64,000 bases of DNA from Candidatus Gottesmanbacteria bacterium (GTDB lineage Bacteria > Patescibacteriota > Microgenomatia > 2-02-FULL-39-11). Shown in pieces: positions 16,622-64,000 of the stretch. The notes beneath the pieces were generated by a model. It had not been told where the DNA came from. It ran no database searches and saw nothing but the letters and a program-made list of their open reading frames with translations. How positions within the stretch are numbered: the stretch's first letter is position 1; each line of letters opens with the position of its first letter. A program made the translations under genes and the position numbers. The stretch spans positions 1,357 through 65,356 of the forward strand of contig JACPKY010000001.1 in assembly GCA_016186795.1 (NCBI GenBank), written 5' to 3'.

Positions 16622-16799
16622 AATAAAATCCTACCACAACGTGCTATTCCTAATTGAGGGAAAAAAACCCGCCAACGTAGCGGGATGTTGCTCCTTATTA
16701 CAGTTGATCGTTGCCCTTATTCCTTCTTTTTGTCGTTCCCCTCTATTAAATGAATATCTTGTCTGACTATACTAAAATCCTCCTTGAGTGTCAAGGGTT

Positions 16800-17567
16800 T
16801 TAGTCATTATCTTTTCGAAAGAGAAAAACAGGGAGGAAAATTCCCGAGAGAACTAAGATTCCACCGATTCCAAGAAGTGATACGGTTGTCTCAATGATTC
16901 CAGTTTTTGGAAGGTACGATACCGTTGGCCGCACTGTATTGGTGGGACATGGTGTTCCTCCCTGCCCAGGAGTTGCACCAGCCGCACATGTCGGACCAAA
17001 TGTTGGAGCAGTAGACGTTGGAGATGGAGTGATCGTACTTGCTTCAATAACATAAATACAGTTATTGACATCGGTAAGGATATTTGAAAGCGTCGACCCA
17101 TCTTTCTTCCCCCACACTTTGGCAACCCCTGGAGTTGTATCGTCGTTTGGTTGATAGAAGACAAAGTTAAACTGTGCCTGACCTGCTGCTTTTGCGGTAA
17201 ATTGTATCTGCCCGATGGAGGCACTTCCCGTCCATGCAGGCTGACTGCTTCCATAATCAAGAGTAATCTTCCCTAAGTTTGCATCAACGGTATTTGTCGT
17301 TGGCTGACCCCAGCTTGAACTGGTTGTGACAGGTGTTGATTGACTTGCCGCCTGGAGTGTATCCGTCGTATAGGTTGCGATGACATTTGCCCCAAATGCC
17401 TGAAATGTCCGCGTATCTAATAGGTAGTCAACTATGAGCGTATCACCGACGTTTATTGTCTTGGTTGAGGGAGAACACTTAAGGTTTGCGTCTGTTGCCA
17501 AGACGTGTGTTGGTGAAGCAACGAAAAAAAGAGAAAAGACAAAGAATAGTGTAAGAATTCGTATCAT
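16800..17567 (-). CDS. Cell-surface protein with signal peptide, cohesin-like beta-domain and LPKTG sortase sorting signal
   Basis: N-terminal signal peptide. C-terminus reads PTFGPTCAAGATPGQGGTPCPTNT...LPKTG + hydrophobic helix + RKDND. The VGDTLIVDYLLD...ANVIATYTTDTL pattern is cohesin-like. Confidence 0.65.
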   Translation of the reverse strand: MIRILTLFFVFSLFFVASPTHVLATDANLKCSPSTKTINVGDTLIVDYLLDTRTFQAFGANVIATYTTDTLQAASQSTPVTTSSSWGQPTTNTVDANLGKITLDYGSSQPAWTGSASIGQIQFTAKAAGQAQFNFVFYQPNDDTTPGVAKVWGKKDGSTLSNILTDVNNCIYVIEASTITPSPTSTAPTFGPTCAAGATPGQGGTPCPTNTVRPTVSYLPKTGIIETTVSLLGIGGILVLSGIFLPVFLFRKDND

Positions 17568-18082
17568 TATAATGTTGCGGTCACTCCACGCGTCCCTCCT
17601 AAGATATCTTCAAGCGATCCTTTTTCGAGTACTTTGGTCTTTCCACCTTCAATAAAAGAAAGAACTGTTGTTGTTGGAGTTCCTGAAACCTTCGGTTGGA
17701 CGGTAAATGAGGCGATAATCCCTGCACCGTTCTCTTCAAGTGGAATGGAAGAAAAAGAAAACGTTCCATTTTCCTGATTGTCAATTCCACCGGTTGTTGA
17801 GTAAGAGGGACCACCGGCAAGCGTTGAGGAAATTATCGTTATTTCTTGCGGATTATATTGGATAGTCGCATCAACTCCCGCAACCGAACGTTTCGTAGAT
17901 AGTGTTACCGTAATAGTACTTGGCGAAACAAATATCATTGAAAGCGATGCTTCGCCTTTTGTCGCACTCGCTTGTTGGTTGGTTAGTTGACCTCTTTGTC
18001 CAACAACAACTGCGGTCACGAGTATAGAAAGCACAAATACCGAAACGCCAGTATACAATGGAAGCCGTGCAAGTATTTTCAT
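17567..18082 (-). CDS. Secreted/membrane-anchored protein with cohesin-like pattern (VAGVDATIQYNPQEITI)
   Basis: 171-aa ORF with an N-terminal TM helix. The stop/start abuts the downstream gene. Confidence 0.45.
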   Translation of the reverse strand: MKILARLPLYTGVSVFVLSILVTAVVVGQRGQLTNQQASATKGEASLSMIFVSPSTITVTLSTKRSVAGVDATIQYNPQEITIISSTLAGGPSYSTTGGIDNQENGTFSFSSIPLEENGAGIIASFTVQPKVSGTPTTTVLSFIEGGKTKVLEKGSLEDILGGTRGVTATL

Positions 18083-26649: not shown

Positions 26650-28454
26650 CCAATAATTTGCGGATATGATACTGGAATAATTCTATCATTTCTTACCTTT
26701 CCCCGTGGTCCCCAATTACCTTCAGCAACTCGGAATGATGTTGTTCCGTAGACTTCTACGACAAATCCTGTATGACCATCAGGGCTTGGTTTAAATCCGG
26801 AAACTTCAGGATCTATGGTCGTATCCCAAACAGCTAAATCTCCAACATTTGGACTAATTACATCTTTTTTAGCAACAAATTTATACCCCGCAAGTTGACC
26901 GCTTGTAAGGTTACGAATATCAACTGCTCGGTCAACTGCCGGAAGTATTTTACCGCTTTCATGAAGAAAAGCAGCGCGGGCAAATCCCACACATTGGATG
27001 TTGTCAAATTCACTTCCCACTCCATCGTGGAATGATTTAAGCTCGGTAAGAACACTATCCGAGTAAGGGGTTGCTACATCAGTATTTAGTCGATCCAAAC
27101 AGGAAATATTGACAACATTCACAATACCATCTGCAATATATGTTTTTCCATCATCATTAGTCACTTGCGCTTTACAATTTTTCTGAATGTCAGAAACAAG
27201 AAGATCAACTGATCCTCCTCCACCACCACCTGTATCACAATCATCCGGATACGTGCCATTGAGCAAACAGAAGTAAACTTTCGGTAGATTGTAGAAAAAC
27301 TGTTCATTTTCAGTACCTTTAAATTGGCACGTTTCATTTGATCCGATATCAACACCAAGAGCAAATTTGCACATAAATTGATCAATTGTCTTCGGGGTCT
27401 GTACATTACCGATAAGTCCAACAAACCGGGAAAGTTGTGCTTCAAATTTCTCCTGTTTTTGCGGGTCATTACAGGTAGTTTTCGGAAGCGAAACAACTCC
27501 TAAATCCCAAATGTCTTTTCCCAACCCGCAAGCATCTGACGCATGGGTCTCTTCAACCCAGATAGCAAGAACAAACAACGGATTCCACATATGGGGTGGA
27601 TCGGAGGAGTCAAACCCGTTTTTATAGGATGCATCAAACACTCTCCTCCATGAGTCTATAAGCGACGTCGGGTAGGTATTTTTGAATGTTGGAACAATCT
27701 GCGATTCCATTCTTCCTAAAACACCAGGAACGAGCTGATCAATTACTGTTGCTTTACTCTCATCTGTCTTATAGTACGGGATACCGACATATGATGTGTC
27801 ACTTGAGGTATCCGGAGGAAGAATTGGTGCTTCGAGAGGACCTCCTCTGATGATATTCCCACGACAAAGTCCTGCCGGAAGTACTGAACACTTTACAACT
27901 TCAAGGCTTCTAGCCATAGATTGATTTTCATCAAATAAACCAAGAACAGACTCGTTGCTAGCATTTGCAACGGTATCTTCCGATTTGATATTAAATGCTT
28001 GATTTTCTCTTACAACTTTCTCCCCGACTCCAAATGGAAAATTCGTATCGGCAAATTGTTGCGCTTCCTCTGATCCAATACCTATGAGTTGTTCAAGATT
28101 TTTTAAGATCTCGGCAAAGAAAGAAGGCAAATCTGTCGTCACGGCTTTTCCTTCAAGAATTGGGTTTTGCACACCCCGATTGATCGTATAACCACCAGCT
28201 GCCCCACCAACGGCTTGACTATCAGATTCTTGATTTTCAGATTGAATCGTCTCGCCTCCACTTGTCGTTGTGTTGGAAGATGCTTGCGGATTTTTCACCT
28301 CATCTCCAGCTTGTCCTGGGAGTCTCGTTTTGTAAATTCTTTCAAGTTCACGGCTTCGAGTACCAAGAATGTCGGAAAAATCAAGAGCAGAAACAGACGG
28401 GGGAAAGACTGCCAAGAGAAGAATCGCTATGCAGAGAAAGATGGGCAGGCGCAT
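26628..28454 (-). CDS. Secreted protein with C-terminal CHAP (Cys/His amidohydrolase-peptidase) domain
   Basis: Signal peptide. The C-terminus carries the CHAP catalytic pattern CVGFAR...GDLAVW...GHTGFVV...EGNW. Confidence 0.7.
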   Translation of the reverse strand: MRLPIFLCIAILLLAVFPPSVSALDFSDILGTRSRELERIYKTRLPGQAGDEVKNPQASSNTTTSGGETIQSENQESDSQAVGGAAGGYTINRGVQNPILEGKAVTTDLPSFFAEILKNLEQLIGIGSEEAQQFADTNFPFGVGEKVVRENQAFNIKSEDTVANASNESVLGLFDENQSMARSLEVVKCSVLPAGLCRGNIIRGGPLEAPILPPDTSSDTSYVGIPYYKTDESKATVIDQLVPGVLGRMESQIVPTFKNTYPTSLIDSWRRVFDASYKNGFDSSDPPHMWNPLFVLAIWVEETHASDACGLGKDIWDLGVVSLPKTTCNDPQKQEKFEAQLSRFVGLIGNVQTPKTIDQFMCKFALGVDIGSNETCQFKGTENEQFFYNLPKVYFCLLNGTYPDDCDTGGGGGGSVDLLVSDIQKNCKAQVTNDDGKTYIADGIVNVVNISCLDRLNTDVATPYSDSVLTELKSFHDGVGSEFDNIQCVGFARAAFLHESGKILPAVDRAVDIRNLTSGQLAGYKFVAKKDVISPNVGDLAVWDTTIDPEVSGFKPSPDGHTGFVVEVYGTTSFRVAEGNWGPRGKVRNDRIIPVSYPQIIGWLQKSS

Positions 28455-30717: not shown

Positions 30718-31872
30718 ATGCTATGCAAAAATTTTTGCTTCAAAAGAAAGCAAAAATACATAAATATTTCTACCATGCCTGTCCAGAATATTTCTAACGT
30801 ACTCCATACAAATATTTCAGCGACACCCTACCCGCAAGCACTACTTGCAGCACCTCCATGGAGTAGTTTTTTGAGACACAACGGCTACCAGGAACTTTCC
30901 AAAGAATTGAACCTTCGAATACTTCAGGATCTTGATACGATCGAGGCGCTTTGGGAGGAATTCTCTCCGAACCGTTCAGTGTTTGATACATGGGATGTAC
31001 GGAAATCTTTTTCTGATGCGTATAGGTTTCGTCCAAAAGCAATCACCATTGAAAAAAAACAAGGGAAAAAAAGGGAAACGGTTGGTGTCTTACCCCTTTG
31101 GTTTAATAGCGATGAAAATCCGGTTGGTGAGTCGAAATACTGTGATTGCAAAAAATTTGTCTGGTTCGGAAGTAATTGGCCTGAGGATAATGTTTTCCAT
31201 GTCAGAGACCCAGAACTTATACCTCTCCTTCTTATTGCTTCTCCAAAACCACTCGAACTTGCTTGTATCCGCTATGACCCAGATTATACGTTCCTTCAGG
31301 AATTTCCAGGGTTTTCAGATGAAGAAGAGAAGAAGTATTTTCTTGATCTTTCGTTTGTTTCCTCACTTGATGATTTTTTGACTCATTTGAAAAAGAAGAA
31401 GCGGTACAATCTACGGCGTGATAAGAAAAAAATTCTTTCCCTAAATCCCACAATTACAATCAATACACATTCTCACCTTAATGATCTTTTTTCCCTTAAT
31501 ATGAAGCGATTCAGAGAACTTTTCCCGGGAGATCCCGATGAATACTCTTCGTTTGAAGATGTCAGGCGGCAAAATGTATTTCGTAATCTTATCGCAAATG
31601 CAAGAAGTTATCAGTATCGGATCATTTCAACAGTTATCGAAGGACGCGTGTGTGCCGTTGAATTCGGACTTGTCCATCACAAAACGTACTATGCCTTCAA
31701 TGCTGGTGTTGATATCGGACACTACTCAGGTCTCGGAGTCTTTTCCAATTTGCTTGTTATTGAAGATGCATTAAATCTCGGATGTACAAAAATTGATTTT
31801 CTTGAAGGTGACAATCACTGGAAAGAATCCTGGCATTTAGATTCTGTAAGCCAATATCAGTTTATCAGGTAA
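30718..31872 (+). CDS. Hypothetical protein, possibly GNAT-fold (BioF2/CelD/FemAB-like) acyltransferase
   Basis: 384-aa ORF. The C-terminal half (YYAFNAGVD...DFLEGDNHWKESW) weakly resembles Acetyltransf_6-type proteins. The start may lie at an internal Met. Confidence 0.35.
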   Translation: MLCKNFCFKRKQKYINISTMPVQNISNVLHTNISATPYPQALLAAPPWSSFLRHNGYQELSKELNLRILQDLDTIEALWEEFSPNRSVFDTWDVRKSFSDAYRFRPKAITIEKKQGKKRETVGVLPLWFNSDENPVGESKYCDCKKFVWFGSNWPEDNVFHVRDPELIPLLLIASPKPLELACIRYDPDYTFLQEFPGFSDEEEKKYFLDLSFVSSLDDFLTHLKKKKRYNLRRDKKKILSLNPTITINTHSHLNDLFSLNMKRFRELFPGDPDEYSSFEDVRRQNVFRNLIANARSYQYRIISTVIEGRVCAVEFGLVHHKTYYAFNAGVDIGHYSGLGVFSNLLVIEDALNLGCTKIDFLEGDNHWKESWHLDSVSQYQFIR

Positions 31873-33003: not shown

Positions 33004-34737
33004 TTATCTCTCTCCAAACCATTTTTCTAAAATTCTTTTCGCAATTGGGGCTGCAACGTTACTACCTTCTCCACCTGCCTCAACCAACACTGTTACGCTA
33101 ATTTCAGGATCGGAAACGGGTGCAAAGACCGTAAACCAGGCATGAGTCCTACCTTTCGGATCACCAAATTCAGATGTACCGGTTTTACATGCGGTTGGTA
33201 TTTCAAAAACTGGTTTCCCAGAGGTAGTTGATTCGTACGTCTCCAAAAAATTAACTCCGTCAATTTTTAACTTTTCACTTTGCACTTTAAACTTAAACAG
33301 TGGCCATCCAGTTCCTCCAGGACTGCAGGCTTGTTTCATGCCTTCCCGAATAAGAGCAAGTACTTTCGGACTAATACCAAGATCTTGACAGCTACCTTTA
33401 TCCGTTTTCACAGTATGCGGTCGGCATAGCTTTCCGGAACTTGCAACAATATTTGTCCACGTGTTTACCTGAAGGGGGGTAGCCAAAATATCACCTTGAC
33501 CGATCGCTACATGGTAAGTATTACCAAGATACCATGGTTGCCCACGCTCCTTTTGTACCCAGGAAGGATCAGGCATTAGTCCCACTTCCTCACCATCAAT
33601 ATCAATCCCCAGACGGCTTCCCATTGCCATTTTTTTGGCAAAGTCTGCAAGTTTTTCTATTCCGAGTTCCTCTCCAACTTTGTAAAAGAATATATCATTG
33701 GACCGTCTTATTGCTTTGACAATATCGACCATTCCTTCCGTTTTTCCATATTGGTTAAAGTACCAGTTACCAAAAGAAAATTCTCCAACTTTTAAGACTC
33801 CGGTGTCTTCGATTTTCGTATTCTCATCAACTACCCCATACGTCAAGGCGGCTAAAGCCGTAATTATCTTAAAGGTTGAACCAGGAGGATATTGTCCAGA
33901 AATCGCTCGGTTAAAAAGAGGAGTTTTGGGGTTTTGAAAAATCGCATCAAGTTGATTTCCACTTATGAAAGCGTTTGGATCATATGCCGGCGATGAAAAT
34001 AAAAGAAGTACTTCACCGCTTTTTGGATTTGTGGCAATAACAGCGCCTGTTTTCCCTTCAAGAGTTTCAGCTGCTATTTTTTGCAGTCGACTGTCGATAC
34101 TTAATACGAGAGGTTTCCCTGGTATTGGATCGATTTTTCCTAAGGTTCTTATTTCATCCCCCAAAGCATCAACTTCAATAAGCTCTTTTCCAGATCGACC
34201 TTGCAGAAGTTCATCTTGCGATTTCTCGACGCCTCCCTTCCCCACGATATCACCAAGTCTTCGGATATTTCCTTTTTCGGCTTCTAACTCCTCCTTTGTA
34301 ATCTCGCCTGTATATCCGAGAACGTGGGAGGTAACTTCTCCAAACGGGTAATAACGGGTAACGCTTGTTCTAACTATCGAAGATGCTGTAGCTGGTTTTG
34401 TTTCAAAGAAATGTTCTCCGGATGAGGTGATAAACTCTGGAATATTTCGAACTAAGGGGATATTGTTCCTATCATAGATGATTCCGCGTGGGGCCGTAAT
34501 TTTCACTTCCCGAATACGATTTCCTTCACTTAAACCTCGAAACTTATGTCCCTCAAGAAGGGTCAAAAATATCAAACGGAAAAAAAGAATAAGAAAAAAA
34601 ATGGCAACACATACTGTGAGAATAATAAACCTATGAGAAAACTGCCATGACTGACTATCGAAATAGTGTCTTGATGATTTTCGTGTGGATGTTGACGCGA
34701 TTCCTTCAGAGAACACTGTTCCAAGAAAATTCTGCAT
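33004..34737 (-). CDS. mrdA: Penicillin-binding protein 2 (class B transpeptidase)
   Basis: N-terminal TM anchor, SXXK motif (GSTFKI), SXN and KTG(T) motifs. It sits directly downstream of mreBCD. Confidence 0.85.
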   Translation of the reverse strand: MQNFLGTVFSEGIASTSTRKSSRHYFDSQSWQFSHRFIILTVCVAIFFLILFFRLIFLTLLEGHKFRGLSEGNRIREVKITAPRGIIYDRNNIPLVRNIPEFITSSGEHFFETKPATASSIVRTSVTRYYPFGEVTSHVLGYTGEITKEELEAEKGNIRRLGDIVGKGGVEKSQDELLQGRSGKELIEVDALGDEIRTLGKIDPIPGKPLVLSIDSRLQKIAAETLEGKTGAVIATNPKSGEVLLLFSSPAYDPNAFISGNQLDAIFQNPKTPLFNRAISGQYPPGSTFKIITALAALTYGVVDENTKIEDTGVLKVGEFSFGNWYFNQYGKTEGMVDIVKAIRRSNDIFFYKVGEELGIEKLADFAKKMAMGSRLGIDIDGEEVGLMPDPSWVQKERGQPWYLGNTYHVAIGQGDILATPLQVNTWTNIVASSGKLCRPHTVKTDKGSCQDLGISPKVLALIREGMKQACSPGGTGWPLFKFKVQSEKLKIDGVNFLETYESTTSGKPVFEIPTACKTGTSEFGDPKGRTHAWFTVFAPVSDPEISVTVLVEAGGEGSNVAAPIAKRILEKWFGER

Positions 34738-34746: not shown

Positions 34747-35172
34747 TTATAGTGAGAGTCGTCTCTCTCTCCCGAATCGTTTTAATACGTACTTGAGCGT
34801 GAAAAGAAACACACTACCAATCACGATAACTTCAATAAAGTAAAGAACATGCAAAGATTTATAGAAGAGAAAACTGTAAAAAACCGTCGCTCCAAAAAGA
34901 TAAAGAAGTTGGAAGAATTTATTTTGAAATTGTACTTTCTTGCTATATCTGGTGAGAAGAAAAAGAGTAGCGAGAAAATAAATACTCGACACTCCAATAT
35001 ATCTCATGGAAAAAAAGTCAAGGAGTAGGCCTCCCAAAAGCGCAATGAGCGCCGTCTCCTCGATACCCGAAACTGCAAAAATAAGAATAGTTACCAGCGT
35101 CAAAGGAAAAGGAAAAAGTGTCGCCTCAAGAAGAATACTCATACCGATAACGAATAGAAGAAAAAGTTTCAT
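34747..35172 (-). CDS. mreD: Rod shape-determining protein MreD-like (small polytopic membrane protein)
   Basis: 141-aa multi-TM protein immediately after mreC, overlapping it by 4 nt. Confidence 0.55.
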   Translation of the reverse strand: MKLFLLFVIGMSILLEATLFPFPLTLVTILIFAVSGIEETALIALLGGLLLDFFSMRYIGVSSIYFLATLFLLTRYSKKVQFQNKFFQLLYLFGATVFYSFLFYKSLHVLYFIEVIVIGSVFLFTLKYVLKRFGRERRLSL

Positions 35173-35930
35173 TGCGTCAAAATGACAAATACCGTTACTT
35201 CCCGCTTATAGTCCAGCGTAGGAATAATTGCTGCCTGTTTATAGACGGAAGAATCATCTGCATTGATATGTGCCGTTTTCCCGATAAGGAGATTTGGAGG
35301 AAAACCCTCTTCCCCACTTGTTATAACGGTGTCATCCTGAAACAATGGATCCTTTTGCAAAACAGTATTCAATGATAGTGTTCCTGATGCTCCTCCGACA
35401 ATCCCTCGAGTCTCACGGGATGTTTTGGCAGGAATTGCCGATTCAATATCTGTTGGGAGAAGAATCAAACTTCGATGCGTTTCAACCTGCAAAACTTTTC
35501 CAATCAAGACATTCCCATCAACAACCGTCATACCAACTTTTATACCACTTTCTAATCCTTTATCAATCTCCATATACCGTGAAATAGATACTACCGTTGC
35601 CGGAACAAATGAATAAGAAGGAGAAAGCGGTGCTTCAAGTTGCCTGCGAAGCGACTCGTTTTCGGCAATTACTTGCCGCATTCTCTCAGATAAATCAACT
35701 GTGTCACTTTTCAGTCGATCTCGCTCTTTTATCACCTCGGAAATCTGTGAGTAGGAAAAAATGAGCGTTCCAAAATTACCAAGGGAGTGTGAGACGGAAA
35801 ATACAGCGCGCTTCGTTATCTGTGGAATGAATGCAAGAGGATCTTTTACAAAGACCAATATCCCAAAAAAATCCAAGGCAAAAATAAAAAGTGCAATACC
35901 AATATAGAAGTGGATACGTGTTGCGTGCAT
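35169..35930 (-). CDS. mreC: Rod shape-determining protein MreC
   Basis: N-terminal TM, coiled coil (AENESLRRQLE), and C-terminal beta domain. Positioned between mreB and mreD. Confidence 0.75.
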   Translation of the reverse strand: MHATRIHFYIGIALFIFALDFFGILVFVKDPLAFIPQITKRAVFSVSHSLGNFGTLIFSYSQISEVIKERDRLKSDTVDLSERMRQVIAENESLRRQLEAPLSPSYSFVPATVVSISRYMEIDKGLESGIKVGMTVVDGNVLIGKVLQVETHRSLILLPTDIESAIPAKTSRETRGIVGGASGTLSLNTVLQKDPLFQDDTVITSGEEGFPPNLLIGKTAHINADDSSVYKQAAIIPTLDYKREVTVFVILTQ

Positions 35931-35936
35931 GGGAAT

Positions 35937-36992
35937 TTATTTTATCAACCCTCCTGTTACTCTCACTTTTTCCAACAGTTTATCATTTTCCAATACCAAA
36001 GCTGCCCCCCGAACGACACACGTGAGTGGATCATCGACAACCCACACCGGCATTCTCGTTGCCTCAGCAATCACTTTATCGATTCCCAAAAGTTGTGCTC
36101 CACCCCCAGAGAGTGCTATTCCCTGTTCTAATACATCACCGATAAGCTCAGGGGGAATCTCCTCAACAGTCTCATTAATTTTTTCTATGATTTGATTTAC
36201 AACAGGTGCAATTGCTTCTCGAACCTCACTTGAACTTAATTTCACTGATTTTGGGAGTCCGCTTTCCAGATCTCGACCGCGAACAACTGCATATTTTTCC
36301 TCTCTTGGCGAGAACGAAATACTCCCAATGGTCATCTTGACGTTTTCGGCTGAAGCAACTCCCAAAAGAAGTGAGTGTTTGAGTCGAACAAAGGATATGA
36401 TTGCTTCATCCATCTCATCTCCGGCAATCCGAAGAGATTTATTCAGAACAATTCCGCCGAGTGAAATGACGGCAATTTCTGTTGTCCCACCTCCAAAATC
36501 AATAACCATGTTGCCTTTCGCTTCATCGATTGGCAGCTTCGCGCCAAGGGCTGCAGCCATAGGCTCCTCAATCAAAAATGCTGCACGGGCGCCAGCGGAA
36601 AGAGCAGCGTCTTGGACGGCTCTTCTCTCTACCTCGGTCACACCCGATGGAATTCCAACAACCACTTTTGGACGAGGAATTGTGGGAACAATAAATTGTT
36701 TATCCTCATGGACGAGTGAAATATAATGTGCAAGCATAGCAAGTGTTCCGTCAAAATCGGCAATGACACCGTCTTTGAGTGGTCTGAAAGCCTCAATTTG
36801 TGAAGGAGTCTTCCCTACCATTCTTTTCGCCTCACTCCCAATAGCTAAAATCTTTTTGGTTTTTTTGTGACGAGCTACCACTGATGGTTCTCGAATGGCA
36901 ATTCCCTTCCCGGAAACATAGACGAGCGTATTTGCAGTACCAAGATCTATAGCTAAATCATGGCTGAAAAGTCCAAAAAAGAAGTCGAGCAT
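35937..36992 (-). CDS. mreB: Rod shape-determining protein MreB (actin homologue); start probably at the internal MLDFFFG... Met
   Basis: LAIDLGTANTLVYV phosphate-1 motif, plus DFGGGTTEIAV and LSGGGAQL motifs. Confidence 0.9.
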   Translation of the reverse strand: MLDFFFGLFSHDLAIDLGTANTLVYVSGKGIAIREPSVVARHKKTKKILAIGSEAKRMVGKTPSQIEAFRPLKDGVIADFDGTLAMLAHYISLVHEDKQFIVPTIPRPKVVVGIPSGVTEVERRAVQDAALSAGARAAFLIEEPMAAALGAKLPIDEAKGNMVIDFGGGTTEIAVISLGGIVLNKSLRIAGDEMDEAIISFVRLKHSLLLGVASAENVKMTIGSISFSPREEKYAVVRGRDLESGLPKSVKLSSSEVREAIAPVVNQIIEKINETVEEIPPELIGDVLEQGIALSGGGAQLLGIDKVIAEATRMPVWVVDDPLTCVVRGAALVLENDKLLEKVRVTGGLIK

Positions 36993-37095
36993 AAACGAAC
37001 CTATTGTAACAGAGACAAATTTCCTTCGAAAGAGAGAATTCTCACTCTTCACTTGTCATTCCTACTTTGCTACACTACAAACCTGTCAAGTAGTA

Positions 37096-55685: not shown

Positions 55686-55744
55686 AAGGGGAAGGAGATT
55701 ATTGATTGAGTGAAAACCTTCCCCAAAGGGGAAGGTTTTTTTTG
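55686..55744 (+). promoter_or_regulatory. Putative attenuator: GGGGAAGG (55688-55695) can pair with CCTTCCCC (55717-55724) or that CCTTCCCC pairs with a second GGGGAAGG (55728-55735) to form a terminator hairpin followed by T8
   Basis: The sequence AAGGGGAAGG...AACCTTCCCCAAAGGGGAAGGTTTTTTTTTG lies immediately 5' of the 870-aa gene. Confidence 0.45.
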
Positions 55745-55747
55745 TGC

Positions 55748-58322
55748 TATGCCAGCAATTGAACGAGCACCATCTATCGAGCATCAATATAGTCCAGAAC
55801 TACAAATAGTGAGAATTCTCCCTTTGCAGATGGCTCATCCGGATGAAATTCGTGCGCAGTTACAATCTCAGCTTGACGGAGGTGATTTCAAACCATGGGA
55901 AACGGAAATGACATCTCTCTATATGACATTACGAGGCCCCGAAACCAAAACACCAAATACTGTCATGATGATCGGAGGAGAAATTCCAGAAAGTGATCCC
56001 CAAACCAAGAAGAAGGTAGGTCTTCATGAAGGAGCTCTACGAGTCCTTGCACGGTCTGCGCATGCGTATGGTGTGACAAACACTGACTTACGAATTATCC
56101 GTGAGAGAAAACCTTTTAGTTGGAATTCACCACGCGGGAGGATTTTTGCAAAAGAATTCGTTTTATCAACAGAAGTCCCACCTGATTTCGAACCGCTGGC
56201 TCTTGATCCGAAGACTCGGTATCATGCATTTCAGAAATTCACTCTTGGATCATTCAAGCGGCTACTGGCGAAAGAGTACATAAAAGTGAATGGGGAAAAT
56301 TATCGTCTTGCAGGAAACTTACGGGGAGATAAAAGAAACCGCCGGCAAGACCACCGCTTATCTGCAGATGGAGAAGATGTTGTAAAAACAAGAACCTCTC
56401 TTTTTGAGACATTGGAGAAATTCGAAATGGAAACACGACGTGAGGTTGCCTTGGCTCTTATCGATCAAGTGGTGCCAGATAAACGAATTTACTCTAACTA
56501 TTTTACTCCCTCGTGGAAAGAGAGGTGGAGAATGTCTTTTAGAAAATATACATTCGGATCAGACCGATCAAGAGCTGCATTTAGAGATCATTACAGAGAA
56601 TTTCTTATAGACTATGCTCAGAAAATTCTCCCCATTCGTTCTCCAGATGGCACTCCTCGCGATCTTTCTTCAAATTACGTTATCCGTGATCTCTGGAGAG
56701 CTGCTGAGGCAGTCTATCTTGGGAAACTCACTCGCTTCAATAGTCGACTTCCTATCCAAGGACCCCGAAGGGATGCAATAGAACCCAAACTTTTAGGAGC
56801 AAATAGCGATCAATATTATGAAGAATTATATTCCCACGGAAGTGAACGGTTTGGTCGTTACCTCAGGTTTCTTCAACAAGCACTCGAAACAGAAACCGCA
56901 TTGGCTACGTTTAAGAAACTTCTTGATGTTAGAAGACTCAAAACAGACCGAAGGTCTATCTCTAATGAGAAATTAAATGATAAAACGCAAACTGATCTTC
57001 TTAATTACGAACAGATTGTACGAACAGTCTATGAGGAATTTATGCAAAGCTTCCTCCCGAGCGATACATATGTTGCCTATGTAAGGGGTTATCCTGATGA
57101 AGACACTCGGTTAGGTCTATGGCGACGCATTTATGCGTCATACTCGCAAATGAATGATACGTTTATCAATTTTCTTACCACGAGTCCCGCAAGAAGACTT
57201 GCTTCTCACCCAGCTGTGACTGTTGGCCTTGATACCGCCATGTCAGTACAAAGCGACCAGCTCATTGAACATATCCTTGGTACATTTGGCATAAATCCAT
57301 ATAAAGTAGGAAACACTCTCCTTGATCGTGCAACTGCTCTGGAATATCGAAGGAAAATGATTGGAATAATGGAAGATATGGAAGATGTTAAACCTCACCA
57401 TGAAGAGCAAATTGCCCAAGATACGTACTTTCTTCGCGATGTCCTCATTCATCTTGCGAAACCGGGAACAACAATACAAAGATATTTACTTGTCTACGAT
57501 GAGAAAAAGGGAGTTGCGAAGCTTCTTGACCTGAAGACTCCATGGAAGGAAATTTCCGCTGAGATTATAAGACCAGTTGATGTTATCACCTGTCACATCG
57601 ATGGAATAGACGTTCAAGTTGCATATTATTTCGGTTCCAAACGGTATGAAGAATTAAAGAGAAAATCAATTGAACGAGATACTCCAGCAAGAAAAATACT
57701 CGATATCACCCGATTTGCTATTTTTATTGGAGATTTTGATACGTTCGGAAAATGGGTAGACGGTACTGAAAAAGATATCCGGAAACGTCTCGTTTACCAA
57801 CTTGAGGAACGTCTCCAAGAAATTGCACAAGATCCAAAGCTTTGTGGATACAAGTATACAGAAGATGTCGGAGAAGATAAAAAAAGAAAAGATGTCCTTG
57901 ACGGAGATACAGCAACCGCGGGAAGCGGTGCATCAAAAACCGGACTTCCCGCAATAAAGAAGTACATAACGCTGAAAATCACATCTCCCCTTCGGGATGA
58001 AGTGCAAACTCAAGAACTGCGGCTTATGCCAAGTGCACTCGCAGCAGTTGAATGGAACCTCGATACTGAATCATATGCCTCAGAACGACTACGGACAACA
58101 AAATTTCAAACTGCAAGAGAGGGCGAAAAAGTGCTTTACCAATATATGACATACCCTGTGACACGCATCCTCTGGCCACCACAGATTGAAGAGTTTCGAC
58201 TCCGATATATAAATCTCATGGAGGGGCCAAAGCCTCCTGCAACTCTTACCCGATGGAGACTTGCGGCTCTTCAATTTACAGAATGGTTAGAATCTCACAT
58301 TGTTCCGCCAACTGAAGAGTAG
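55748..58322 (+). CDS. Large hypothetical protein (start moved to the ATG at 55748; the ORF-track GTG start at 55710 reads through the terminator hairpin)
   Basis: About 858-aa ORF with no recognisable motif. Confidence 0.5.
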
Positions 58323-58327: not shown

Positions 58328-59095
58328 CTATTTCCCCAACTGTTGACACTTAATGACATCAAGACCGTTTATAATACCATTTCCATCAACATCATACTGG
58401 GAAACTGATGGCCATGTTGCAGAATTTTGACTACTTGCCCCGACATTCTCCTGCACTTTTTGGCAAAATGGACTTAATCCGCCAGTTGAAGTGGGAGAAG
58501 TTGCCACTGTTGGACCAATAGTAACTGAAGGAATCGTTATTGCTTTCGTAATCGTTGGAACGGTTGTCGGAATTGCAGTTGGTATTGCAGTCGGCAATGA
58601 ATCAATCTTCAAGGGTTTCGCAACACTTGTTGTAAAGGTCCAGGCAATACAGTTCTTTGTACAAATTCCTCCGCTTGAATCACAACGGATTTCACTTGTT
58701 CCGCCTGAACTACTCTTCCCGAATACAAGTTGATAATAATAGACAGTATTTGGCGTAAGAAGTGTCAAAGGTACATTATGTTCCTTTCCGGCAGATCCTT
58801 CAAGGGTAGAAAAGGTTAAATTTGCCTCATCGACCCCATATTCTACCCTTCCTTGGGAGTTTTCATCACTTGCCCATGAAATAACTGTACTATTTGGTCC
58901 AACTTGGACTGCTTGCACATTTTTTGCAGGACACGTTGATGCTCTGGCAAACATACCTGCAGCCATTTTGCCACCAAAGACTGTCGCAACTATAACAACA
59001 GCCAAAATACCAAGAAGTATGGCAAGTCTGCTATATTTTTTGAACTTTTCGAAACTGACATTTCCAATATGCAATGAAGGAAGCGGTAATTTCAT
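58328..59095 (-). CDS. Membrane-anchored FN3-domain protein with C-terminal dockerin-like Ca-binding segment
   Basis: N-terminal TM helix, FN3-like pattern (VQVGPNSTVISWASD...VEYG...LTPNTVYYYQLV), PT-linker, and C-terminal YDVDGNGIINGLDVIKC resembling a dockerin DxDxNGxINxxD loop. Confidence 0.5.
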   Translation of the reverse strand: MKLPLPSLHIGNVSFEKFKKYSRLAILLGILAVVIVATVFGGKMAAGMFARASTCPAKNVQAVQVGPNSTVISWASDENSQGRVEYGVDEANLTFSTLEGSAGKEHNVPLTLLTPNTVYYYQLVFGKSSSGGTSEIRCDSSGGICTKNCIAWTFTTSVAKPLKIDSLPTAIPTAIPTTVPTITKAITIPSVTIGPTVATSPTSTGGLSPFCQKVQENVGASSQNSATWPSVSQYDVDGNGIINGLDVIKCQQLGK

Positions 59096-59901
59096 AGAAG
59101 TAATAGAACTCCAACAACTGTTAATACAATTCCAATTCCCATGGCAGCAAATGTTGTTTCAACGGTCCCAGTTCTTGGAAGTTCAGAAAGTGTAGGAGTC
59201 GGTGTTTTTGTCGGTGTTGGGGTTCTGGTCGGTGTAGCAGTTGGAGTAATTGTCGGTGTGACTTGGCCTCCTCCAGGGGGTGTCGGGGTGGGACTCGTAG
59301 ATCCATCTCCACTTCCTACAGTCAAAGTGAGTGGTGAAAGCGGACACTGGATAATATCAGACGAATCCGAAGACCTATTAATATTGGAATCAGCGGTCGA
59401 ACCGGAAGTACAATCAAATGAAAGTTGTGTTGTACCTGCAGAAAGAGCAGTCAAAGAAATGGTTGCAAAAAGAGTATCAGTACTTGTGGATTTTGGACTT
59501 GAAATATCTTTTACATAACCACTCACAAGATATTTGTTGGTTGTACCTTCAACAATTTTCTGTAAATATGATGGGTAAAAACTTCCTGCGACAAATTGCG
59601 TTGTATTAACACTTAATTTGTTTGGATCAAAGAGTATCATCGCATCTGCATTGGTTGTTGATTGTCCTCCCGTATTAATGAGAATATTTACTTTCACCAC
59701 TCCCCCTGCTTCAAGTGTTTGAGATGGAACAAGTTCGAATTTCAGAACTTGCGCAGAAACTGCATTTATCCTTCCCGCAAGAAGGAAAAGGGTGCTTCCT
59801 ATAATAAATACTAGAAACAGTTTCGCCAAGTTCATATTATTGGATACTGACTTTTGCATTTTCGATCGCATCAACGATGTTTTTGGCTGTACCTTTCTCA
59901 A
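59092..59901 (-). CDS. Sortase-anchored scaffoldin-like protein: cohesin-like domain + PT-linker + LPRTG sorting signal
   Basis: Signal peptide. The cohesin-like pattern is GGVVKVNILINTGGQSTTNADAMILFDPNKLSV; then TPTPTPPGG...TPTPTKTPTPT, LPRTG and a hydrophobic tail. Confidence 0.5.
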   Translation of the reverse strand: MRKVQPKTSLMRSKMQKSVSNNMNLAKLFLVFIIGSTLFLLAGRINAVSAQVLKFELVPSQTLEAGGVVKVNILINTGGQSTTNADAMILFDPNKLSVNTTQFVAGSFYPSYLQKIVEGTTNKYLVSGYVKDISSPKSTSTDTLFATISLTALSAGTTQLSFDCTSGSTADSNINRSSDSSDIIQCPLSPLTLTVGSGDGSTSPTPTPPGGGQVTPTITPTATPTRTPTPTKTPTPTLSELPRTGTVETTFAAMGIGIVLTVVGVLLLL

Positions 59902-60436
59902 CTAACGTTGTATGGCTTGTCGAGTTTACGACAAAATCGAATGAAATTTCGGTATTCCCTGCTTTTATCGAACGAAATTGAATTGATGCCAGTGTCACAG
60001 GAGTAGTTACGGCAACAGTCTCTTTTGTCTGAAACCCAGTAATTTTGATAATTCCCTTTTCGTTGTCAATGATTTTCCGTGGATACGTAATAAAAAAATC
60101 ACTGGTCGTAATTGGAGATTCTGCGTTAAGGATTGATTCATCAAACTGAATGATTGCATCAGTCCCTGATAGAGTAAATCCTGGTGCATCAAAAATAATG
60201 GTAGCGGTAACGGTTTCTCCAACATACGTCTCTGATTTATCCAAGACGATCTTATACGTTCCTCGGGGAGGAATTGAGGGAACTATACCTTGTGAAGATG
60301 AACCGTTTCCGTTCGTAAGACGCAGATTCAACTCATTTTGTTTTTGCATGCGAAGCACAAGTGTCCCTATAAGTAAAACAACCAATACCACGAATACAAC
60401 AAGAATTTTTTTATACTCTGCCGCACCTCTATTCAT
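59837..60436 (-). CDS. Membrane-anchored protein with cohesin-like domain
   Basis: N-terminal TM helix. Pattern GETVTATIIFDAPGFTLSGTDAIIQFDESILNAES. Confidence 0.45.
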   Translation of the reverse strand: MNRGAAEYKKILVVFVVLVVLLIGTLVLRMQKQNELNLRLTNGNGSSSQGIVPSIPPRGTYKIVLDKSETYVGETVTATIIFDAPGFTLSGTDAIIQFDESILNAESPITTSDFFITYPRKIIDNEKGIIKITGFQTKETVAVTTPVTLASIQFRSIKAGNTEISFDFVVNSTSHTTLVEKGTAKNIVDAIENAKVSIQ

Positions 60437-60488
60437 AATTTTTTTATAATTTTTATAATGGTTATAATTTTTATAAAGTTATACGTTC

Positions 60489-61952
60489 TTATTCATCATC
60501 CGGTTTTGTTGCCAACGTATTGACAACAATGGCAATATCCTGACCACTAATTATTCCGTCATAGTTGACATCGGCAATATCAAGACTTCCCTCATCGGTT
60601 TTGGCATGGTTGGCTTCAATAAGAGACAGATCAACAACGTTTACTGTACAATCCTGTTTCCCGCCAGTATTGGGATCTGGAAGATCACCTGCTTCAAGCG
60701 CACCTTCATCACCTGACCAATCAAAGTCTTGGCTTGATGCTTGACCATCCTGCAAAACGATATACTGTGTCTCTTTCGTTGATCTTGTCTTTGGACCTTT
60801 AAGATAAAACGTATAATGATTTCCGCTTGTGATTCCATCAAGACTCACCCATCCATCATCGGTAACATGCGCAATGACAAATCCAGAGGGGGGTTCGGGA
60901 TCTATTGCGGAAACAGGCCAGTAGATGCCATTTTCATCGGCGCTCATAGGAATATAGAAATCCTTTCCTGCATTTCCTGCACTTTCACAACTATATGTTG
61001 CCCCAGAAAGTAACGATTCCTCATTTATTACGCGGAGTTTAAGGTAAAGGTCGGGATAATCACTAATATTTGCCAGTCTCGCCCTAAATCGGATAGATGG
61101 ATTATCTCCTCCGCCGTCTCCAGAACCAATATTTATAGTAAGTGGTGTCTTTTGTCCGACATCATAATTATAGTGTTCATTTCCAGAAGGAGGAGTTGGA
61201 GTAAGAGTTGCAACAGGTGTTGGAGTTCGTGTTGGGACAATCGATGGTGAAGGGGTTGGTGTACGAGTCGGAGTCGGTGAGCCGCTTGGCAAAAGTGAAG
61301 GCGTTGGAGTACGAGTGGGGGTCCCACTCCCTGCTGCCGGAACTGATGGGGTCGGAGTTTTCGTAGGTGTCGGAGTACCCGTTGATGTCGTAGTGGATAT
61401 TGTATAGGAAGCACTTTGTCCTGAGGTTGACACATCTGGAGCTTGACCGGGAATTCCTGCTTCTGTCACACGGGTACTCGTAAAGGAAACGGTAGCTGTA
61501 CCGAGTTGAATGCCTGATTTTACCATGTAGGAAATAGATGCAAACTCAATATCTGTTGAAAGTGATACGGGCGAAGTTCCCGCACTGATTGCACAGAGAA
61601 GCGTTACACTTGTTGCGCTTTGCGTTACAAATGGAGTTCCATTAAACGGACTAAGACATGAAGCAGACGAAACGGTTAATTGCTGTGGAATAGTCAAAAC
61701 TGCCTCGGCTCCACTGATATTTATCCCACGGGTTGCTGTTTTATGGAGTTTAATTTTTGCTTGGAATGATTGACTTGGGGTGTAACTTCCAGTTGAAGGA
61801 TTAAGCGTCAAATTCACTTCTCCACTGCCTGTTGCCTGTTTTCGGAGATCCTGCTGCTGACGGACAAGAATAAGTCCAATAAGAAGTCCCATGGCCAGTA
61901 ATGCAACAATTATAATTTGTTTTAAGTTTTTATCTTTTTTTATATTTTTCAT
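60489..61952 (-). CDS. Surface protein: N-terminal cohesin-like domain, PT-linker, beta-rich domain, C-terminal dockerin-like segment(s)
   Basis: N-terminal TM/signal sequence. Cohesin-like pattern GEVNLTLNPSTGSYT...AKIKLHKTATRGINISGAEAVLTIPQQLTV. C-terminal ...DIADVNYDGIISGQDIAIVVNTL. Confidence 0.5.
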   Translation of the reverse strand: MKNIKKDKNLKQIIIVALLAMGLLIGLILVRQQQDLRKQATGSGEVNLTLNPSTGSYTPSQSFQAKIKLHKTATRGINISGAEAVLTIPQQLTVSSASCLSPFNGTPFVTQSATSVTLLCAISAGTSPVSLSTDIEFASISYMVKSGIQLGTATVSFTSTRVTEAGIPGQAPDVSTSGQSASYTISTTTSTGTPTPTKTPTPSVPAAGSGTPTRTPTPSLLPSGSPTPTRTPTPSPSIVPTRTPTPVATLTPTPPSGNEHYNYDVGQKTPLTINIGSGDGGGDNPSIRFRARLANISDYPDLYLKLRVINEESLLSGATYSCESAGNAGKDFYIPMSADENGIYWPVSAIDPEPPSGFVIAHVTDDGWVSLDGITSGNHYTFYLKGPKTRSTKETQYIVLQDGQASSQDFDWSGDEGALEAGDLPDPNTGGKQDCTVNVVDLSLIEANHAKTDEGSLDIADVNYDGIISGQDIAIVVNTLATKPDDE

Positions 61953-62001
61953 CCTACTATATTAGCTTAGGCAATCTACTATCAGTTATCAAGGACCCAA
62001 C

Positions 62002-64000
62002 TTACTGCGAACAACTGCCAAAATTCTGCCTGAGTATTTCATAATCTGCGGTATTAATCATGTTGCTACCATCAACTACCAAATCGGGAGTATGCTGTCC
62101 TTGAGGAATACTAAGCTGACTGACTGGTTTGCCATAATTTTGTCTGAATAATTCCGCATCACTCGTTCTTATACATCCATCGCTTCCGCAATCGAGATTC
62201 CCCAATGATCCCCGTGGACAAGAAATAGCTGTTGGAGATGGTGTCGGTGTACGGGTTGACGAAGGTACAATACTTCCGGTTGGTACTGGAGTTGGACTCT
62301 TGGTTGGAGAAGGTGAAGAAGTCGGTGTCGGAGTTCTCGTTGGCGTTGGAGTAGGCGTTCTTGACGGTGTCGGAGTTCTTGAAGGTGTAACTGTTGGAGT
62401 AGGTGTTCTGGTGAGAGTAGGAGTTGGAGTTTTGGTCGGTGTCAAAGTCAGTGAAGGAGTAACACTGGCTGTAGGAGTTGGCCATAGACAGAAAATCTGC
62501 CGGGGATTTGCCCATGGCAGGGACACTTGGGTACCGGTCGGAATATCTTTCGCTTTCACCGTGATTGTATGAATTTTGGCATTTTTCAAAACATCGGGTG
62601 TATCAAATGAAAATCCATGGGTTGCAACTCCCCCGCAGGCATTTCCTACACCTATTTCTCGTCCTTTATCAGCTACTGTTGTTCCCAGAAACTGGTCACT
62701 TTCGTAGAAGTTTATATTGAGAGTTTGCTGATAATTATCCCCGTCACACGCCCAGCCGACAAATTTCTCACAGGTAGCAGAATCAAACGTTCCGATCGGT
62801 ACTGCCAGTGTTGGAGTTAGCGTTGGTGTATGTGTTGGTGTTGCAGTTGGATATGCTTTCCAGACTATAAATTTTTCCAACCCCACCCGTTTTCCTACCC
62901 CATCTGGATTGGATGGACTGACGACTCCTTTACTAATAACTTTAATCCTATGGGCAAAGGTTGTATCGGAAATTGGAAATTCAAATGATTCAAATCCCTC
63001 TACACCATAAAGATCAACACGACGTCTCACAATGAGCGTCTTTTGAGGATCTTGCTTTCGGATTGCAATAACTGCAATACCCGCACGGGGACCCTTGCGC
63101 AGAGTCACGCTTACCCTGTTTCCTTTAAATTTCAGTGCAACTACTCCTCTTTTATCATTTGTAAATCGGTATGTAGTATCGCCACTTCCTGCATCTTCCC
63201 ATACTCCGCGTAAATACTTTACTCGTTTACTATTTTCCTGATAGATTTTGCCAGTTGGATCTGCATCATCGTACGCTTCAGATCCATCCATTGCATCAAA
63301 GGCAGCCTCATCGGTAAGAGTATCAAATGCTTCATCAGGCTCCTCTGGTTCATCGGTCGGAGTAGGAGTTGCCGTCGGAGGACGAGGGGTAGGTGTACGA
63401 GTCGGAGTTGGTGGAAGTGGAGTCGGTGTTCTGGTGGGGATGGGAGTAGGTGTCCGAGTAGGGGTTGGCGGACGCGGGGTTGGAGTACGAGTTGGAGTTG
63501 GAGTACGCGTTACTGTCGGAGTTGGTGTGAATGTAGGATTTGGTTTCCAGACAGTAAATTTGTCGATCCCTACCCGTTTCCCTCCACCTGGATTATTCGG
63601 ACTCACCACACCTTTGGCAATAATTTTGATTCTATGGGCACTACTTAGATCCGAAATTGGAAATTCAAATGATTCAAATGCTCCCAGCTCTTGATATAAA
63701 TCTACTCGTTGCCGGTAGATAAGAACTCCATCAGATACTCTCTTAATCACAATAACACCTATTCCAGCACGAGGTCCTTTCCGCAGGGTCACTCTTACTT
63801 TGTTTCCCTTAAATCGGAGAGCCGCTACGGCCTTCACATCGTTTGTGAATTTATATGTAACGTTGTCCTCCGAAGCACTTGTCCAGGTTCCACGCAAGTA
63901 CTTCACTCGAGGATTTGTTTCTTCGTACACTTTCCCAGTTGAATTTGCATCATCAAAGTTTTCTGCGCCGTCCATGCGGTTCAGTTCAGCATCATCATCA
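62002..64000 (-). CDS. Large surface protein (N-terminus beyond window): at least two tandem ~150-aa repeat domains separated by PT-linkers, a Cys-containing domain, and a two-segment C-terminal dockerin-like module
   Basis: Repeat units KYLRG.W......Y.FTND...V.AL.FKGN.V.VTLRKGPRAGI.VI.I....FESFEFPISD...AHRIK.I.KGVVSP.NP.G.GKRVG..KF.VWK; the nucleotide repeat has a ~660-bp period (62.88 kb and 63.54 kb). C-terminal NLDCGSDGCIRTSDAELFRQNYG ... DLVVDGSNMINTADYEILRQNFG. Confidence 0.55.
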   Translation of the reverse strand, partial: DDDAELNRMDGAENFDDANSTGKVYEETNPRVKYLRGTWTSASEDNVTYKFTNDVKAVAALRFKGNKVRVTLRKGPRAGIGVIVIKRVSDGVLIYRQRVDLYQELGAFESFEFPISDLSSAHRIKIIAKGVVSPNNPGGGKRVGIDKFTVWKPNPTFTPTPTVTRTPTPTRTPTPRPPTPTRTPTPIPTRTPTPLPPTPTRTPTPRPPTATPTPTDEPEEPDEAFDTLTDEAAFDAMDGSEAYDDADPTGKIYQENSKRVKYLRGVWEDAGSGDTTYRFTNDKRGVVALKFKGNRVSVTLRKGPRAGIAVIAIRKQDPQKTLIVRRRVDLYGVEGFESFEFPISDTTFAHRIKVISKGVVSPSNPDGVGKRVGLEKFIVWKAYPTATPTHTPTLTPTLAVPIGTFDSATCEKFVGWACDGDNYQQTLNINFYESDQFLGTTVADKGREIGVGNACGGVATHGFSFDTPDVLKNAKIHTITVKAKDIPTGTQVSLPWANPRQIFCLWPTPTASVTPSLTLTPTKTPTPTLTRTPTPTVTPSRTPTPSRTPTPTPTRTPTPTSSPSPTKSPTPVPTGSIVPSSTRTPTPSPTAISCPRGSLGNLDCGSDGCIRTSDAELFRQNYGKPVSQLSIPQGQHTPDLVVDGSNMINTADYEILRQNFGSCSQ

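Follow-up and report, generated by a model that had tools for sequence, protein, structure and literature searches.

Does an ultrasmall bacterium build a surface complex from cohesins and dockerins, and if so, what would such a complex carry? The question is raised by five consecutive open reading frames (ORFs) on the minus strand at positions 58328-64000 of a 64,000-nucleotide (nt) stretch of DNA, referred to here as the window, from Candidatus Gottesmanbacteria, a member of the Microgenomates within the candidate phyla radiation (CPR). Cohesin-dockerin assembly is best known from cellulolytic Firmicutes, and to our knowledge the means by which CPR bacteria (Patescibacteria) attach to and feed on other cells are little understood beyond type IV pili. 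A first-pass annotation of the window had tentatively assigned the five genes to a non-cellulosomal cohesin-dockerin system with a sortase-anchored scaffoldin. All five ORFs were present, and all of its coordinates were reproduced (Table 1; the products are called P1 to P5). Within the reach of computation, the assignment is supported: the locus would be non-cellulolytic and of the cohesin-dockerin type, and it would include a single-cohesin scaffoldin anchored at its C terminus. We consider it probable that the locus encodes a non-cellulolytic surface scaffold with a protease and binding proteins as its cargo.

Cohesin domains in the cluster

Single-sequence searches of the five proteins against Pfam, NCBIfam, and the PDB gave mostly sub-threshold matches, and family profiles were therefore needed for the assignment of P2, P3, and P5. 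Pfam Cohesin (PF00963) was matched by 7 of 21 P2 homologues (44 to 69% identical; best E value, 4e-9), by 8 of 10 members of the P3 family from syntenic loci (best E value, 3e-10), and by 5 of 30 members of the P4 family. P6, encoded just outside the window, scored above the threshold (29 bits; cutoff, 24.1). When the P3-family profile was run against PDB sequences, solved cohesins ranked first, with 3l8q and 5lxv at E ~2e-4. Alignment of profiles with hhalign showed that the families of P2, P3, P6, and the N-terminal cohesin of P4 (P4N) are mutually related at 93 to 98% probability; the P2 family was matched to the P3, P6, and P4N families at 93 to 97%, and P3 was matched to the P2 family at 97.3%.

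The structure of P4 was modeled with AlphaFold2 using 30 homologues. The mean predicted local distance difference test score (pLDDT) was 81.8, and every folded part exceeded 90. In the structural ranking cohesins stood above all other folds, which told the cohesin fold apart from a generic immunoglobulin (Ig)-like beta-sandwich. The solved non-cellulosomal cohesins of Clostridium perfringens (2vo8 and 2w1n) and Archaeoglobus fulgidus (2xdh) were among the top matches. The cluster thus contains four cohesin-bearing proteins (P6, P4, P3, and P2). The cohesin-like patterns originally read from the sequences of P2, P3, and P4 are borne out by the family Pfam matches, the hhalign comparisons, and the P4 fold ranking. 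The contrary outcome, in which the beta-domains would be generic Ig folds and no dockerin would be matched, was not observed: cohesins head the P4 ranking, and the dockerin matches are significant.

P4 as a cohesin-X-module-dockerin protein

The C-terminal 70 residues of P4, searched as an isolated module, matched Dockerin_1 (PF00404) with 24.7 bits (cutoff, 22.9), and the same model matched 26 of 30 P4 homologues, which confirms the one or two dockerin-like segments first noticed at this C terminus. The canonical dockerin pattern consists of two tandem 12-residue loops (D-x-[DN]-x-[DN]-G-x-[IV]-x-x-x-D), with a helix after each. Across the whole window, the canonical Ca-loop pattern had only two matches, one in P1 and one in P4. 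Loop 2 of the P4 dockerin is canonical (DVNYDGIISGQD). In the P4 model, three dockerin helices were found at residues 439 to 482, with a beta X-module in front of them. The best PDB match to the whole chain, by Foldseek, was the CohI9-X-DocII fragment of CipA (4fl4/3kcp), with an E value of 2.8e-12 over ~457 columns. On the strength of the dockerin match, the modeled X-module, and this whole-chain match, P4 appears to be an adaptor scaffoldin with one cohesin and an X-dockerin.

A motif, LVxQxQ(E/D)(I/L)Rx(K/R)A, directly follows the N-terminal hydrophobic helix in cohesin proteins of the P4 and P6 types. It lies at 61830-61865 of the window (P4 residues ~30 to 41) and recurs in related loci (L007, 6819-7436; L008, 6580-7626 and 7715-9661). 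The motif differs from a canonical signal peptidase I site and may be a lineage-specific processing or sorting signal.

A second predicted dockerin class on P5 and on a protease

P5 closes with a C-terminal module (CPRGSLGNLDCGSDGCIRTSDAELFRQNYG...DLVVDGSNMINTADYEILRQNFG) of two segments, the first loop of which is near-canonical (DCGSDGCIRTSD). In other metagenomes, modules of the same type (53 to 60% identity) also close P0084, an S8 peptidase, and P0083, a protein with an NHL propeller. By hhalign, the P5 module was related with 95.5% probability to a dockerin class labeled "GDANCD," which occurs on the neighboring S8 protease and on small syntenic proteins; in small syntenic ORFs of L008 and L011, modules of this class exceeded the Pfam cutoff (29.4 and 24.5 bits, respectively). 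A joint profile of eight P5/S8-type modules, run against the PDB, retrieved 17 solved dockerins at E < 0.01 (best, 1.4e-7 for 2y3n_B), with the earliest clear non-dockerin match at E 0.46. These profile results indicate that P5 ends in a divergent dockerin, and that the predicted second dockerin class is carried both by P5 and by the S8 protease encoded outside the window.

The tandem repeats of ~150 amino acids (aa) that had been described for P5 were found to be 153 aa long and 62% identical. These repeats, putatively beta-sandwiches, are likely to be binding modules. A single copy of the repeat also occurs in P0083, ahead of the NHL propeller. An AlphaFold2 model of the P5 segment R2+D3+Doc, built from only 5 sequences, had a mean pLDDT of 50.5 and contained a low-confidence beta-sandwich and two dockerin helices. 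Foldseek matched this low-confidence model to generic FN3/Ig tandems only, with template modeling scores below 0.35, and these matches were disregarded.

Conservation of the cassette

Species-representative genomes and metagenome contigs were scanned with the P2 profile, which yielded 16 further independent loci, all of them CPR-like, and thus 17 loci in total. A local hidden Markov model (HMM) of each module was then applied to every locus. The common gene order was as follows: dockerin-bearing proteins, one or more P6 cohesins, a protein with one or more cohesins or another domain plus an X-module-dockerin (X-Doc), P3, P2, and P1. The X-Doc gene was directly upstream of P3-P2 in all 11 loci with enough flanking sequence; in one further locus it was directly upstream of P2, and both P3 and P1 were missing. 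A P1 homologue directly followed P2 in 14 of the 16 loci with flank.

Variation was found in the remaining parts. The N-terminal part of the X-Doc protein contained one cohesin, two cohesins, or a concanavalin-like domain, and the place of P5 was taken in other loci by other dockerin-tagged proteins. Dockerin-bearing genes were located upstream, and S8 proteases were among them in 3 loci. If the locus encodes a scaffold and its cargo, the core should stay constant and the dockerin-tagged periphery should vary, as is seen here. Four of the loci (L007, L009, L011, and L012) come from third-party metagenome-assembled genomes labeled "uncultured Gammaproteobacteria bacterium"; they carry the CPR-type cassette among CPR-like neighbors, and these labels look wrong.

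The C-terminal signal of P2

P2 begins with a cleavable signal peptide (predicted cleavage between AVSA and Q, with the A and the Q invariant in the family), followed by the cohesin, a Pro/Thr stalk, and LPRTG; a run of 24 hydrophobic residues closes the protein. In the 21-member alignment of the family, the pentapeptide was LPRSG in 10 members, LPRAG in 5, LPRTG in 3, LKRAG in 2, and MPRAG in 1; Leu, Pro, Arg, and Gly thus show little or no variation at their positions. The family consensus reads [LM][PK]R[S/A/T]G-x-x-E-x-T and then hydrophobic residues to the C-terminal end (window positions 59095-59181; homologues A1 and L006-L022). More distant P2 orthologues have IPQTG or LPNLG instead. 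The LPXTG anchor model TIGR01167 scored 13.1 bits on P2 (cutoff, 15.9).

Peptidoglycan is the usual acceptor for sortase substrates. The window includes a FemAB-like/GNAT gene at 30718-31872 (plus strand) and further genes at 33004-34737 and 35169-37052 (both minus strand), and PBP2 transpeptidase, MreC, and MreB are present across these. The PBP2, MreB/C, and FemAB-like genes imply that the organism makes peptidoglycan, possibly with peptide cross-bridges. A sortase is encoded in another Microgenomates genome (PMC7143001).

A second, unlinked pair of cohesin-like proteins

Cohesin-like, sortase-anchored proteins had also been proposed at 16.8 to 18.1 kb of the window, and both a cohesin-like domain and an LPXTG-type signal were found in one of the two genes there. 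The cohesin-like domain of Q1 was recognized by the P3-family HMM (E 7e-8) and, by hhalign, was related to the P2 family at 90% probability. Its LPKTG-and-tail signal scored 15.9 bits with LPXTG_anchor (TIGR01167), exactly the cutoff, and matched Gram_pos_anchor at E 2e-3. Q1 is a second candidate anchored cohesin, unlinked to the cluster, with a charged end (FRKDND) and a signal more classical than that of P2. For Q2, the Pfam Cohesin match was weak (E 1.2e-3; 19.5 bits, below the cutoff), none of the local family HMMs matched, and no C-terminal anchor was found. The order of Q2 and Q1 (a helix-cohesin gene and then a signal peptide-cohesin-LPXTG gene) mirrors that of P3 and P2. No dockerin gene was found near Q1/Q2.

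Extent of the cluster and neighboring genes

The window edge cuts the locus, and contigs with identical genes (L001 and L013) continue past the window end. A larger cluster, all on one strand and with a conserved core cassette, has the five genes at its downstream end. The genes are tightly packed: 1 nt separates the P3 stop from the P2 start, P2 and P1 overlap by 4 nt, and the remaining gaps are ~50 nt. In the database, P2 is HYW55_00285 and P4 is HYW55_00295 (100% identity); both are annotated as hypothetical proteins of a metagenome-assembled genome of Candidatus Gottesmanbacteria, which places the organism in the CPR. A promoter and terminator scan of the locus gave counts no better than chance.

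TABLE 1 Coordinates and parts of the cohesin-dockerin cluster, its upstream continuation, and the second, cohesin-like pair
Feature	Position	Strand	Length	Description
P1	58328..59095	-	255 aa	N-terminal membrane helix, Pro/Thr-rich linker, and the two parts below
P1, FN3	58694-58924	-		FN3 domain
P1, Ca-loop module	58331-58477	-	49 aa	C-terminal module
P2	59092..59835 (database start; ORF to 59901)	-	247 aa	Candidate anchoring scaffoldin; Pro/Thr linker between cohesin and LPRTG
P2, cohesin	59311-59751	-
P2, LPRTG	59167-59181	-
P2, hydrophobic tail	59095-59166	-
P3	59837..60436	-	199 aa	N-terminal membrane helix and single cohesin
P3, cohesin	59840-60259	-
P4	60489..61952	-	487 aa	Candidate adaptor scaffoldin; membrane helix, disordered Pro/Thr linker, and the three parts below
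P4, cohesin	61398-61817	-
P4, X-module	60717-61100	-		Beta-domain
P4, dockerin	60507-60698	-		Two-segment
P5	62002..>64000	-	753 aa (full length, from L001)	Candidate cargo/binding subunit; N terminus past window; long Pro/Thr linkers
P5, R1	63538-63999	-		Repeat
P5, R2	62851-63342	-		Repeat
P5, third beta-domain	62482-62808	-
P5, dockerin	62005-62229	-		Divergent (predicted)
Rest of P5	Beyond window, upstream, 1st	-		N-terminal membrane helix
P6	Beyond window, 2nd	-	181 aa	Membrane helix and cohesin
S8 protease	Beyond window, 3rd	-	852 aa	Subtilisin-like; internal dockerin (predicted) and Laminin_G_3 domain
M4 protease	Beyond window, 4th	-	856 aa	Thermolysin-like; Laminin_G_3
Further genes	Beyond window, after M4 protease	-		Two small membrane proteins and a Cys-rich secreted protein
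Q1	16800..17567	-	255 aa	Signal peptide, cohesin-like domain, LPKTG, hydrophobic tail, FRKDND end
Q2	17567..18082	-	171 aa	N-terminal membrane helix and weak cohesin-like domain; directly upstream of Q1

Three proteins without a Pfam match are encoded upstream of the M4 protease, at 1-1941 of L013: a secreted Cys-rich protein of 649 aa, in which CxxC/GGC runs are numerous, and two small paralogues (195 and 211 aa) with a membrane anchor. On the other side of the cluster, an 870-aa protein without a Pfam match is encoded on the plus strand at 55710-58322, convergent with P1 across a 5-nt gap. A distant homologue of this protein (24% identity) occupies the same place beside the cassette in L008 and L009.

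In the neighborhood of Q1/Q2, the minus strand encodes an 858-aa polytopic membrane protein with a long acidic Lys/Glu-rich tail and no Pfam family (19890-22466) and a 608-aa protein with a C-terminal CHAP peptidoglycan-hydrolase domain (26628-28454). Both proteins might be parts of a different envelope or secretion apparatus. Among the other genes of the window are a complete 16S rRNA gene and two tRNAs. A LAGLIDADG_2 homing-endonuclease ORF (E 1e-34) lies directly downstream of the 16S rRNA gene (14406-15044 and 15107-16627, both on the minus strand). The 23S rRNA was not detected anywhere in the window.

Evidence against a paired and anchored assembly

Several results count against a scaffold that pairs and is covalently anchored. 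At the level of the domains, Pfam Cohesin matched none of the window's own proteins above threshold (P4 at E 0.17; P2 and P3 without a match). Loop 1 of the P4 dockerin is non-canonical and carries an insertion. In P5, loop 2 of the C-terminal module is degenerate, and the module has no Pfam match, so that "classic," the term in the first-pass annotation for this two-segment dockerin, is too strong; the two segments and the dockerin assignment itself stand, the latter by profile (E 1.4e-7). The P5 repeat likewise has no Pfam match, and nothing in PDB sequences matched it better than E 1. The M4 protease encoded upstream has no dockerin. Finally, P1, P3, P4, P5, and P6 each have an N-terminal hydrophobic helix of their own without a canonical signal-peptidase site. 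These proteins may thus already be tethered to the membrane, which would make a capture-and-anchor hierarchy less needed; the complex could be a cis-clustered array instead.

The module at the end of P1 adds to these points. The FN3 domain that had been ascribed to one member of the locus is present in P1 (Pur_ac_phosph_N, 34.1 bits with a cutoff of 30; fn3, E 4e-4). The C-terminal 49 residues, which had been described as a dockerin-like segment, contain a single canonical 12-residue loop (DVDGNGIINGLD), two invariant Cys residues, and an invariant Trp; a helix lies ahead of the loop, which is the arrangement of a complete EF-hand. With the profile of this module, calmodulin EF-hands (E 8e-5, summed) were matched no worse than the dockerin 1ohz_B (E 1e-3), and the Dockerin_1 scores of P1 (13.3 bits) and its L007 orthologue (19 bits) were both below the cutoff of 22.9. 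Membership of the P5/S8 dockerin class was also considered and rejected, as hhalign gave a probability of 0.4%, that is, no relation. The tail of P1 is therefore treated here as a putative single EF-hand-like Ca module and not as a demonstrable dockerin.

The anchoring of P2 is also affected. In its family, Ser and Ala are commoner than Thr at position 4 of the pentapeptide, unlike in classical LPXTG substrates, and the basic tail typical of sortase substrates is missing. No sortase was found in the window by a motif scan and Pfam scans of 49 window ORFs or, by a motif scan, in any related locus that was fetched. Given this non-canonical signal, without a basic tail, and the lack of a sortase in the window and the loci, sortase anchoring is something that we infer: covalent wall anchoring of P2 is plausible, and a plain C-terminal membrane anchor is the alternative. 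Of the earlier description of P2 as covalently anchorable, the LPRTG and the hydrophobic tail are retained.

DISCUSSION

From the sequences and models we infer that cohesins and dockerins pair within this locus. A working mechanism can be outlined as follows: (i) P2 would be exported via its cleavable signal peptide and then fixed in the envelope through its C-terminal signal, either by sortase-type transpeptidation to peptidoglycan or by a simple membrane tail anchor; (ii) P2 would present one cohesin on its Pro/Thr stalk, as ScaE of Ruminococcus flavefaciens or Sca2 of Ruminococcus bromii does; (iii) the X-dockerin of P4 would plug, in a Ca-dependent manner, into an anchoring cohesin, with P2 as the likeliest partner and P3 as the alternative; (iv) the cohesins of P4 and P6 would capture proteins with the second dockerin class, namely, the S8 subtilisin-like protease and P5; and (v) P1, with its FN3 domain and single Ca loop, would be a constant accessory subunit. 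The net effect would be to bring a protease and binders together at the surface of an ultrasmall cell, where they would serve in attaching to and digesting proteinaceous or host-cell-surface material, not cellulose. An organism whose biosynthesis is minimal could use a surface decorated in this way to attach and to break down protein outside the cell.

The cohesin and dockerin homologies could also be genuine without any pairing. The members would then be independent, self-anchored surface proteins (adhesins or wall-associated proteins), their dockerin and EF-hand modules would serve only as Ca-dependent stabilizers or ligand binders, and their clustering would reflect co-regulated envelope genes. 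The N-terminal membrane helices of most members, the several non-canonical Ca loops, and the resemblance of the P1 module to a plain EF-hand fit such a reading, and isolated non-cellulosomal dockerins have been interpreted as adhesin parts in other ultrasmall bacteria (PMC10066038). However, the fixed order of cohesin and dockerin genes across 17 loci is hard to explain without interaction, P4 has the same Coh-X-Doc layout as a scaffoldin that works by pairing, and the P5-type module has been shuffled onto unrelated catalytic and binding domains like a targeting tag. We therefore regard the absence of pairing as unlikely, though it is the strongest competitor of a scaffold with protease and binding-protein cargo.

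We give still less credence to the scaffold of a genuine polysaccharide-degrading complex, similar to a cellulosome or an amylosome, with its dockerin-bearing glycoside hydrolases encoded elsewhere in the genome. Our view covers the 64 kb of the window and ~9 kb of flank only, and both proteases end in Laminin_G_3, which can bind carbohydrate (PMC10066038). Nevertheless, no glycoside hydrolase was found in or beside the cassette in any of the 17 loci. In the present locus, its 9-kb upstream extension, and the scanned window ORFs, there was neither a glycoside hydrolase nor a carbohydrate-binding module, so that the cluster does not qualify as a cellulosome; the original statement that no glycoside hydrolase is present is thus correct for the five genes and the scanned window ORFs. 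The dockerin carriers found locally are S8 proteases, an NHL propeller, beta-sandwich repeats, and small Cys-rich proteins, and the nearest dockerin-bearing enzyme is the S8 protease. Moreover, the glycoside hydrolases of one complete Microgenomates genome lack signal peptides (PMC7143001). A sortase-assembled pilus or fiber, in which the beta-domains would be pilin-like Ig folds and not docking sockets, is very improbable, and we reject it on the fold ranking, with cohesins first, and on the lack of pilin features. A non-cellulolytic cohesin-dockerin scaffold is the reading that we retain.

One of the closest known arrangements is that of ScaE and ScaB in R. flavefaciens. P2 has the same succession of signal peptide, one cohesin, Thr/Pro-rich stalk, and LPXTG-type C-terminal signal, the X-module-dockerin dyad of P4 is encoded beside the anchor, and ScaE (2zf9) is among the structural matches of the P4 cohesin; the ScaE/X-dockerin anchoring mechanism has been described (PMC12484212). 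In contrast, the sequence identity is only 10 to 12%, the signal here is LPR[S/A/T]G without a basic tail, glycoside hydrolases are absent, the genome of the CPR host is tiny, and only four single-cohesin proteins are encoded in the cassette, in place of multi-cohesin scaffoldins. CipA of Clostridium thermocellum (CohI9-X-DocII; 4fl4 and 3kcp) shares with P4 the order of cohesin, X beta-module, and dockerin, whereas in P4 there is only one cohesin, a membrane helix lies at the N terminus, the disordered Pro/Thr linker spans ~90 residues, and dockerin loop 1 carries the insertion. CipA is anchored through SLH-domain proteins, none of which was seen at the P4 locus.

Cohesin-dockerin pairs outside cellulosomes had been thought, in the first-pass annotation, to be known only from predictions. 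This is incorrect: the R. bromii amylosome is a non-cellulosomal cohesin-dockerin system shown experimentally, in which Sca2 has a sortase signal and a cohesin that also binds peptidase dockerins (PMC4611034), and structures of non-cellulosomal cohesins have been solved. The amylosome (Sca1 to Sca4) resembles the present locus in having a few single-cohesin proteins, one of them (Sca2) with a sortase signal, but its cargo is GH13 amylases and its host is a Firmicute; here, the host belongs to the CPR, the genes form one conserved cassette, and the local cargo would be an S8 protease together with proteins of a binding type. The cohesins of C. perfringens glycosidases (2vo8 and 2w1n) and A. fulgidus (2xdh) are built into large enzymes or are proteins on their own, and no anchored protein joins them in a cassette of the scaffold type. 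S8 proteases with a dockerin have been described in cellulosomes (PMC12484212). Non-cellulosomal cohesin-dockerin systems, ScaE-type anchors, and dockerin-bearing S8 proteases are thus already known. The features that appear new are the lineage of the host, the compactness and conservation of the cassette, the proposed cargo of a protease and binders, the two divergent Ca-module classes, and the unusual sorting signal. We found no description of a CPR cohesin-dockerin system in the open-access papers that were searched.

A more specific reading is possible, which we put forward tentatively and hold to be considerably less likely than the scaffold itself. The cassette might be a dedicated mini-scaffold for host or prey contact, vertically conserved and of a Microgenomates type, in which an anchored cohesin is joined by a Coh-X-Doc adaptor and by two more cohesins. 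Proteases of the subtilisin type and exchangeable binders (NHL propellers and the new 153-aa beta-domain) would be displayed by this scaffold on an ultrasmall episymbiont. Its lineage-specific parts, which would be new to the literature, would be a Cys-containing dockerin class that is invisible to Pfam, a disulfide-stapled single EF-hand on an FN3 protein, the post-helix motif QxQ(E/D)(I/L)Rx(K/R)A, and an LPR[S/A/T]G signal that lacks the tail and is recognized by a sortase particular to the CPR or by another enzyme.

The cassette provides a concrete and testable set of surface proteins, since its small soluble modules can be easily expressed and tested for Ca-dependent binding, and the divergent cohesin-dockerin pairs predicted here could serve as orthogonal parts in designer scaffolds. 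If the proposed scaffold is correct, cohesin-dockerin assembly would reach into a lineage that branches deeply and has minimal genomes, and its roles would come to include proteolysis or adhesion.

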